From: a virus
Lineage: Duplodnaviria; Heunggongvirae; Uroviricota; Caudoviricetes
DNA length: 40,994 nt
Direction: 5' to 3' (one strand)
IMG/VR virus record: IMGVR_UViG_2617270943_000004
Location: 1-40,994 of that record
Under the pieces are notes generated by a model that saw only the letters and a program-made list of their open reading frames with translations, did no database searches and was not told the DNA's origin. Both the position numbers and the translations under genes were made by a program. Numbering within the stretch: the first letter of the stretch is position 1; every line of letters starts with the position of its first letter. This document shows positions 31,748 through 32,647 of the stretch, in pieces.

Positions 31748-31824
31748 ATAATACGATATGTACTTTTAGAATGCAAACAAAAAAATACATCTTGTGCATG
31801 GATGGTTTTAGTACAGAGCGTAAT
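31748..31824. promoter_or_regulatory. Right operator/promoter region (PR with operator-like 15-mers)
   Basis: Minus-strand PR-like TTGCAT (31771-31776) and TATTAT (31748-31753) with 17-bp spacer; operator-like sites AGTACATATCGTATT (31750-31764, minus orientation) and AGTACAGAGCGTAAT (31810-31824). Confidence 0.4.
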
Positions 31825-31833
31825 AATAAGGGT

Positions 31834-32493
31834 ATGAAAATGAAATGGTATGAACTGGCTAGATCCAGAATGAAAGAGCTCGGCATAACTCAAGAGAAGT
31901 TAGCTGAAGAGCTTGGTATGACGCAGGGTGGAATTGGTCACTGGTTGCGCGGATCTCGTCATCCATCTCTTGACGAGATTGGTGTGGTGTTTAAATACCT
32001 TGGTATTGATAACGTCTCATTCAACCACGACGGTACATTTTCACCTGTTGGCGAATACTCATCTGCCCCCGTTAAAAAACAATATGAGTACCCTGTTTTT
32101 TCTCATGTTCAGGCCGGGATGTTCTCGCCTGAGCTTAGAACCTTTACCAAAGGTGATGCGGAGAGATGGGTCAGCACAACCAAAAAAGCCAGTGATTGTG
32201 CGTTCTGGCTTGAAGTTGAAGGTAATTCCATGACCGCGCCAACAGGATCCAAGCCAAGCTTTCCTGACGGGATGTTAATTCTCGTTGACCCTGAGCAGGC
32301 TGTTGAGCCAGGTGATTTCTGCATAGCCAGACTTGGTGGTGACGAGTTTACCTTCAAGAAACTGATCAGGGATAGCGGTCAGGTGTTCCTACAGCCACTA
32401 AACCCGCAATATCCAATGATTCCATGCAATGATAGCTGTTCCGTAGTAGGGAAAGTTATCGCCAGCCAGTGGCCTGAAGAGACATTTAGTTAA
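31834..32493 (+). CDS. cI: CI repressor: non-lambda N-terminal DNA-binding domain fused to a lambda-type LexA/S24-like C-terminal domain
   Basis: C-terminal ~130 aa ([37 protein letters not shown]...[88 protein letters not shown]) matches recalled lambda CI; N-terminal HTH resembles the Cro HTH here. Start at 31834 or 31840; the ORF-track start at 31771 lies in PR and lacks an RBS. Confidence 0.8.
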
Positions 32494-32525
32494 CAGCCTC
32501 ACCACTCTAAAACACACAACAATAA

Positions 32526-32553
32526 CCCGACCTTAGCGTCGGGTTTTCTTTTT
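32526..32553 (+). terminator. Intrinsic terminator after cI
   Basis: CCCGAC-CTTAGC-GTCGGG followed by TTTTCTTTTT. Confidence 0.6.
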
Positions 32554-32572
32554 CCAAAATATAAACCCATTA

Positions 32573-32647
32573 AATACAAAGCGTTATAAAAAACTAATTA
32601 TATTTAGAACATTTTGTATTGACTCGATAAAGTACAAATCGTACTAT
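32573..32647 (+). promoter_or_regulatory. Left operator/promoter region (PL with operator-like 15-mers)
   Basis: TTGACT (32619-32624), 17-bp spacer, TACTAT (32642-32647); dyad AGTACAAATCGTACT (32631-32645) between -35 and -10; related AATACAAAGCGTTAT at 32573-32587. Confidence 0.45.

Follow-up and report, generated by a model that had tools for sequence, protein, structure and literature searches.

Organization of the immunity region

The DNA analyzed here, called the window, is a 40,994-bp stretch of a prophage whose early region runs lambda-style in inverted orientation. The virion genes of the prophage are P22-like and related to CUS-3 and phiv205-1, and the early region is a mosaic of lambda / HK-phage type. 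A tRNA-Arg gene (anticodon CCT) lies near the left end at 1009-1083, and the similarity to phage CUS-3 starts at about 1054, inside the tRNA gene, which is consistent with integration of the prophage at an argW-type attachment site. Tandem phage-borne tRNA-Thr(TGT) and tRNA-Asn(GTT) genes are present inside the prophage on the minus strand at 24752-24907.

The repressor gene cI is located on the plus strand at 31840-32493 and encodes 217 amino acids, with an alternative in-frame ATG at 31834. The N-terminal domain (residues 1-81, coded by 31840-32082) contains a Pfam HTH_3 helix-turn-helix at residues 9-56 that passes the curated cut-off (E = 8.3e-11). The lambda-type C-terminal domain, coded from 32083, is a Peptidase_S24 domain (E = 8.7e-29). 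From Tyr82 onward, 132 of the 135 residues are those of lambda CI, and the three differences are S139C, E217D and G236S in lambda numbering. Ala92-Gly93, Ser130 and Lys173 align with A111-G112, S149 and K192 of lambda. The protein thus has the S24 domain with the Ala-Gly cleavage site and the Ser/Lys dyad of a lambdoid CI, and its N-terminal half is a helix-turn-helix domain. These domains and catalytic residues were read directly from the window.

The cro gene lies divergently on the minus strand at 31506-31721. This ORF of 71 amino acids encodes an all-alpha protein of HTH_3 type (Pfam, E = 1.4e-12), unlike lambda Cro, and it has a solved homologue, 28tn_A (E = 2.4e-16). The N-domain of CI aligns only loosely with that of lambda, and its PDB match to lambda repressor 1lli has E = 7e-4. 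With the local Cro, the same domain shares 35% identity in a 62-residue alignment (E = 4e-13), and the recognition helices are nearly identical (TQGGIGHW in CI, TQGAIGHW in Cro, common motif TQGxIGHW). The original prediction had described a C-terminal domain nearly identical to lambda, joined to a helix-turn-helix unlike lambda and resembling Cro, and the alignments bear out both statements.

The lambda-type C-domain is not a recent acquisition from lambda. The C-domain DNAs of the window, lambda and Nil2 differ pairwise at 28-35 positions in 408 bp, almost all of them synonymous, and the window is about 7% different from both lambda and Nil2. Since the three distances are about equal and mostly synonymous, the mosaic is old, and a recent exchange within cI between lambda and a Sakai-type phage was ruled out. 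The C-domain is thus an old common module under strong purifying selection.

An intrinsic terminator with an 8-bp stem followed by a T run was found by scanning on the plus strand at 32524-32545, 31 bp past the cI stop. Neither rexA nor rexB is present among the window ORFs. The prediction that rexAB is missing and that cI runs directly into a terminator was therefore correct. On the minus strand, a cII gene of P22 C1 / HK022 type was identified. Opposite the 3' part of cII, the plus strand carries at 31111-31150 the inverted repeat GCCTCAA...TTGAGGC and then TTTTCTTTT, in an antisense arrangement with the position and orientation of the lambda oop RNA terminator. The terminator scan missed this repeat, probably because its loop is long, and the repeat gave zero Rfam matches. 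Rfam at gathering thresholds likewise gave zero matches in the immunity region.

The early promoters were located by consensus scan. PR lies on the minus strand at 31748-31777, with a -35 element of TTTGCA/TTGCAT and a -10 element TATTAT at 31753-48, and its equivalent is annotated in AP005153. PL lies on the plus strand at 32619-32647 (TTGACT-17-TACTAT). A putative PRM was recognized by reading the plus strand at 31799-31827, with TGGATG (31799-804) as -35 and AATAAT (31822-27) as -10. The consensus scan did not call PRM, so it is treated here as a candidate. Its transcription start is predicted near 31834, the first ATG, and therefore the cI mRNA may be leaderless, as in lambda.

The flanks of the region are lambda-like. 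The sequence is identical to lambda from the inferred PL start at about 32652-32654 through nutL (boxB 32703-17). On the other side, lambda identity presumably resumes at nutR, just past the cro stop, which we take as a lead. Given these two edges, the heterologous segment appears to be bounded like a classical 'imm' substitution. Downstream of PL, a lambda-type N gene lies on the plus strand at 32986-33312. Its leader (32655-32985) is lambda-identical through nutL to GGGGTGTG, then continues with about 200 nt of unrelated GC-rich sequence, and becomes lambda-like again some 45 nt upstream of the N start codon. In the predicted fold, a long-range helix of GGGGUGUGGUG with CCACCACACCACC is retained around the replaced core (z = -3.3 vs shuffles). 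This structure may represent a modified form of the N-leader hairpin that is sensitive to RNase III; the leader gave zero Rfam matches.

Identification of six operator sites

The operators were searched with a symmetric 17-bp weight matrix made from only the six VT2-Sakai operators listed in supplementary Table S1 of PMC10742460 (2023). The six best matches among 40,978 window positions all fall in the two control regions, in the order 32630, 31749, 32605, 31809, 32572 and 31783. At the right operator, OR1 (TAATACGATATGTACTT, 31749-31765) scores 18.1 (rank 2), overlaps the PR -10, and is the counterpart of the published VT2-Sakai OR1 and of a 'putative operator' in AP005153. OR2 (AAATACATCTTGTGCAT, 31783-31799) is the weakest site, with a score of 11.0 (rank 6), and OR3 (TAGTACAGAGCGTAATA, 31809-31825) scores 15.0. 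At the left operator, OL3 (AAATACAAAGCGTTATA, 32572-32588) scores 14.8, and OL2 (TAGAACATTTTGTATTG, 32605-32621) has the third best score, 16.3, and overlaps the PL -35. OL1 (AAGTACAAATCGTACTA, 32630-32646) has the best score, 20.4, lies between the PL -35 and -10, and its arms form a perfect AGTAC/GTACT palindrome. With a divergent cro, and with several operators of partial palindromic symmetry that overlap PR/PRM and PL, the region is arranged as in lambdoid phages.

Compared with the corresponding published VT2-Sakai operator, every window site has 1-3 changed bases, most of them in the center or at an edge, and all six 17-mers have the ARTAC half-sites of the VT2-Sakai / Nil2 type. The score of OR2 alone is not significant, with the best score in shuffled sequence averaging 12.8. 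OR2 is supported by its position, the AP005153 annotation, the published VT2-Sakai OR2 and the comparison with other phages, and in the alignment it differs from the Sakai type at central bases only.

Four 15-mers had been noticed before in this region, at 31750-64 (minus strand) and at 31810-24, 32573-87 and 32631-45 (plus strand). All four are in place, and the positions given for two of them, over the PR -10 (31750-31764) and between the PL -35 and -10 (32631), are right; the set was incomplete, with OR2 (31783-99) and OL2 (32605-21) missed. The 15-mer pattern has these 4 matches and no others in the whole window, against 0.04 expected, a count that is circular, those very sites being the source of the pattern; it was replaced by the matrix of published operators. 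When AGTAC-N5-GTACT was searched as a strict palindrome, allowing 2 mismatches at most, it gave 13 matches window-wide vs 8.2 expected, hardly an enrichment and informative via clustering only.

Three further candidates were rejected. An OR2 at the lambda-like distance of 24-25 bp from OR1 was ruled out, as 31774-90 has no acceptable half-sites. A sequence at 32589-32605 (score 9.6), between OL3 and OL2, is AT-rich, lies in the most variable spacer, and was taken as a chance match. The sequence CATAACCAATTGTATTT (score 11.7), located upstream of OL in Sakai-type phages, was left outside the operator set because it is also present in lambda and is absent from the window.

Comparison with phage lambda

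The region resembles lambda in its divergent cI and cro, in its three plus three operators of 17 bp with O1 over the -10 of both PR and PL, and in the CI C-domain, cleavage site and catalytic dyad included. It differs from lambda in the N-domain of CI, which is distantly related and lacks the long N-terminal extension of lambda CI, in a Cro of HTH_3 type instead of the lambda Cro fold, in the absence of rexAB, and in the operator sequences. The window sites do not have the lambda consensus (TATCACCGC...), and the lambda operators score at most 6.0 with the VT2-Sakai matrix. Together with the weak N-domain alignment, this places the region outside lambda immunity (imm lambda).

A similar contrast is known for the Sakai phage. 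Fattah et al. [quoted passage not shown] The lambda CI protein shifts VT2-Sakai operators with an apparent Kd of 3.7-6.4 uM, compared with 0.2-0.35 uM on lambda OR1/OL1 (PMC10742460). These published EMSAs on VT2-Sakai operators used lambda CI and not the Sakai-type protein (PMC10742460).

The module in the window might accordingly be cross-immune with lambda, either with this CI or lambda CI acting on both operator sets, or with the nearly identical C-domains forming mixed oligomers. The reported cross-immunity and operator shifts, the 132/135 identity, the outer half-site bases T-A-x-x-A-C common to both operator sets, and a Gln that starts the recognition helix in both repressors agree with this idea. 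Its weakness is that the VT2-Sakai affinities are 10-30 times weaker than those of lambda CI on its own OR1/OL1 and similar to or weaker than that for lambda OR3, and that the recognition helices differ at most positions. Cross-immunity with lambda is therefore considered unlikely, and partial cross-talk with lambda is kept as a minor rival to the main reading of the locus as a separate, already known immunity type.

Conservation of the operators among carriers

At least 120 IMG/VR contigs were obtained with a scan pattern anchored on OR1 and OR2. The six-site layout was found in these contigs and in all eight GenBank carriers examined, in agreement with the expectation that the operators should be conserved in phages with the same cI/cro pair. 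Among the matches listed, OR2 and OR3 are 26 bp apart in 120/120 contigs, OL1 and OL2 25 bp apart in 105/106, and OL2 and OL3 33 bp apart in 101/106. Because OL played no part in the choice of the contigs, the footprint that it provides is an independent one. Over the 46 distinct OL segments in the matches listed, the half-site cores are nearly invariant, with a mean minor-allele fraction of 0.008, compared with 0.107 for the central 5 bp of the OL sites and 0.186 for the inter-operator spacers. This gradient is the variation pattern that would be expected of real binding sites. In the Stx1 phage, OL lies about 1.4 kb further from cI within diverged flanks, and the three sites, OL3 included, are retained with central or edge changes only.

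The same data bear on a simpler switch, in which function is confined to the four strong sites, one pair at each promoter region, and OR2 and OL2 are chance look-alikes. The low score of OR2, which does not exceed the best shuffled score, is in line with this simpler scheme, and phage 933W manages with two OL sites (PMC4587872). It is nevertheless very unlikely. OL2 ranks third in the whole window, lies over the PL -35, and keeps its half-site cores while its flanks vary. The half-sites of OR2 are kept between the two allelic types although the adjacent spacer has diverged and changed in length, and the distance from OR2 to OR3 is constant in every contig listed. Six sites are thus retained in the preferred reading.

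The OR1-OR2 distance is variable. Among the 120 IMG/VR matches listed, it is 33 bp in 66 contigs, 32 bp in 44, 34 bp in 8, and 35 and 31 bp in one contig each, so the 34 bp of the window is a minority value. The change lies in the spacer at 31766-31782, with an A-run near 31780-31786, where the length of the poly(A) differs between carriers.

The OR1-OL1 distance also varies. It is 881 bp in the window and about 880 bp in 60/106 contigs among the matches listed; in the other listed contigs it is 1.6-2.45 kb, with cargo genes at the rexAB position. This slot between cI and OL, empty in the window, is filled by different cargo in other carriers: a NYN-domain protein in phage 2B8, a 283-aa hypothetical protein in 2G7b, a 348-aa hypothetical protein in phi458, and orf22 in Stx phages. 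The cargo slots examined are positions 3619-4665 of locus L008, 2614-3471 of L009 and 2586-3437 of L010. The cargo genes may be exclusion or defence genes.

Assignment to the VT2-Sakai / Nil2 immunity type

Megablast of the region gave 122 phage records, and the cro-OR-cI(N) segment is present in 776/5426 complete E. coli genomes. The cro-OR-cI DNA is 92-93% identical to the Stx1-converting phage AP005153, Stx2 phage II, Nil2, 2851 and VT2-Sakai, and about 93% identical to the PA-series Stx2a phages. At the protein level, CI is identical to that of Nil2 and the Stx1-converting phage at 210/217 residues, and Cro is identical to Nil2 Cro at 70/71. The 7 CI changes include the N-domain positions D45, E46 and V59, and the recognition helices of CI and Cro are unaffected; both proteins are essentially those of the type.

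The control elements show the same relationship. VT2-Sakai (Sp5), Nil2, AP005153, Stx2 phage II and 2851 share with the window the cI and cro genes and the six operators, whose half-site cores are identical. The VT2-Sakai / Nil2 group also has the same spacings (OR2-OR3 26, OL1-OL2 25 and OL2-OL3 33 bp) and the same layout of PR and PL. In the GenBank record AP005153, three 'putative operators' are marked along with PR and PRM in the cro-cI interval, and another three at PL; these correspond in position to the six window sites. Six operator sites are reported in each of these phages (PMC9803871 and PMC10742460), and PMC4587872 refers to Fattah et al. for the OR1-3 and OL1-3 predictions in Stx2a phages of Sakai type.

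Differences from the Stx members lie around this core. The OR1-OR2 distance is 34 bp in the window vs 32 bp in the VT2-Sakai / Nil2 group. The Stx phages have about 1.4 kb of extra ORFs between cI and OL, which brings OR1-OL1 to about 2.3 kb, compared with 881 bp in the window, where the terminator is followed by OL. The lambda-type nutL-N and nutR flanks and the P22-like virion background also distinguish the window from these Stx phages.

The closest relatives are non-Stx phages. In vB_EcoP-720R6, vB_EcoP-683R2, Louie and Dewey the whole cro-cI-OL-PL segment is 99.3-99.6% identical in DNA, with the same compact cI-terminator-OL layout. The module of phi458 is 97.9% identical, with its 348-aa ORF inserted between cI and OL. 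All five have one A fewer in the poly(A) run between OR1 and OR2, giving 33 bp vs 34 bp in the window.

The cI and cro genes and the six predicted operators form a complete lambda-style repressor switch. The most probable reading, with a probability of about 0.9, is that the region at 31748-32647 serves a P22-like prophage as its immunity module and belongs to the known VT2-Sakai / Nil2 type. The original prediction had proposed a hybrid immunity region with its own specificity, with a novel DNA-binding domain on a lambda-type C-domain. The mosaic structure of cI is genuine, and so is an operator family distinct from that of lambda, but both had been described before, and aligning the N-domain to known immunity types, as had been suggested, leads to the VT2-Sakai / Nil2 type with unchanged half-sites. 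That the locus has a new specificity with undescribed operators is hardly credible: N-domain and operators do differ from lambda, the lambda operators score low with the matrix and the closest solved N-domain matches such as 1lli are weak, but near-identical proteins occur in Nil2, the Stx1 phage, Stx2 phage II, VT2-Sakai and 2851, the operators were already annotated and published, the module is widespread in E. coli genomes, and the 7 CI substitutions are unlikely to alter specificity because the recognition helix and half-sites are unchanged. The locus is an ordinary member of the VT2-Sakai / Nil2 immunity type.

Proposed mechanism and operator geometry

By analogy with lambda, the short HTH_3 N-domain of CI would read 17-bp operators of the form W-A-R-T-A-C-N5-G-T-A-Y-T-W, with CI dimers binding these sites, and the S24 C-domain would provide dimerization and dimer-dimer cooperativity. 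RecA-stimulated self-cleavage would take place at Ala92-Gly93 by Ser130/Lys173. Through its three operators at PR/PRM and the other three at PL, CI would shut off both early promoters. The center of OR2 is predicted near -43 of the candidate PRM, as in lambda, and OR3 would lie over its -10; CI at OR2 would then activate a weak PRM, and CI at OR3 would repress it. Looping between OL and OR would be expected on the same model. Cro, a small HTH_3 paralogue with almost the same recognition helix, probably binds the same six sites in a different order of preference.

The geometry of the operators is the sole mildly unusual part of the locus. The center-to-center spacings are OR1-34-OR2-26-OR3 and OL1-25-OL2-33-OL3 in the window, compared with OR1-24-OR2-23-OR3 and OL1-24-OL2-20-OL3 in lambda. 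OR2 is about one helical turn further from OR1 than in lambda, and the PR -35 is not covered. With an OR1-OR2 spacing of 34 bp (31-35 elsewhere) against 24 bp in lambda, lambda-style cooperativity between OR1 and OR2 is not to be simply assumed. Read along a single strand, a long spacing precedes a short one at OR (OR1-34-OR2-26-OR3) as well as at OL (OL3-33-OL2-25-OL1), and the two sets lack mirror symmetry around the promoters; the close pairs are therefore OR2/OR3 and OL2/OL1.

It is conceivable, though we consider it improbable, that this geometry makes the switch work differently from lambda despite the lambda-identical C-domain, and that spacing changes by poly(A) slippage tune it. If true, prophages that are otherwise homoimmune, Stx phages included, could differ in cooperative pairing, in OL-OR looping and in their induction threshold according to the OR1-OR2 spacing of 31-35 bp.

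Biological significance

Little about the locus is new. The prophage belongs to a common, clinically relevant immunity group that includes the Sakai Stx2 prophage and Stx1 phages. This assignment predicts superinfection immunity between a non-Stx P22-like prophage and Stx phages that share its host, and also possible repressor cross-talk with Stx phages in the same host. The compact cI-OL form and the variable OR1-OR2 spacer offer a natural series for the effects of operator spacing and loop size in a switch built on the lambda C-terminal domain.
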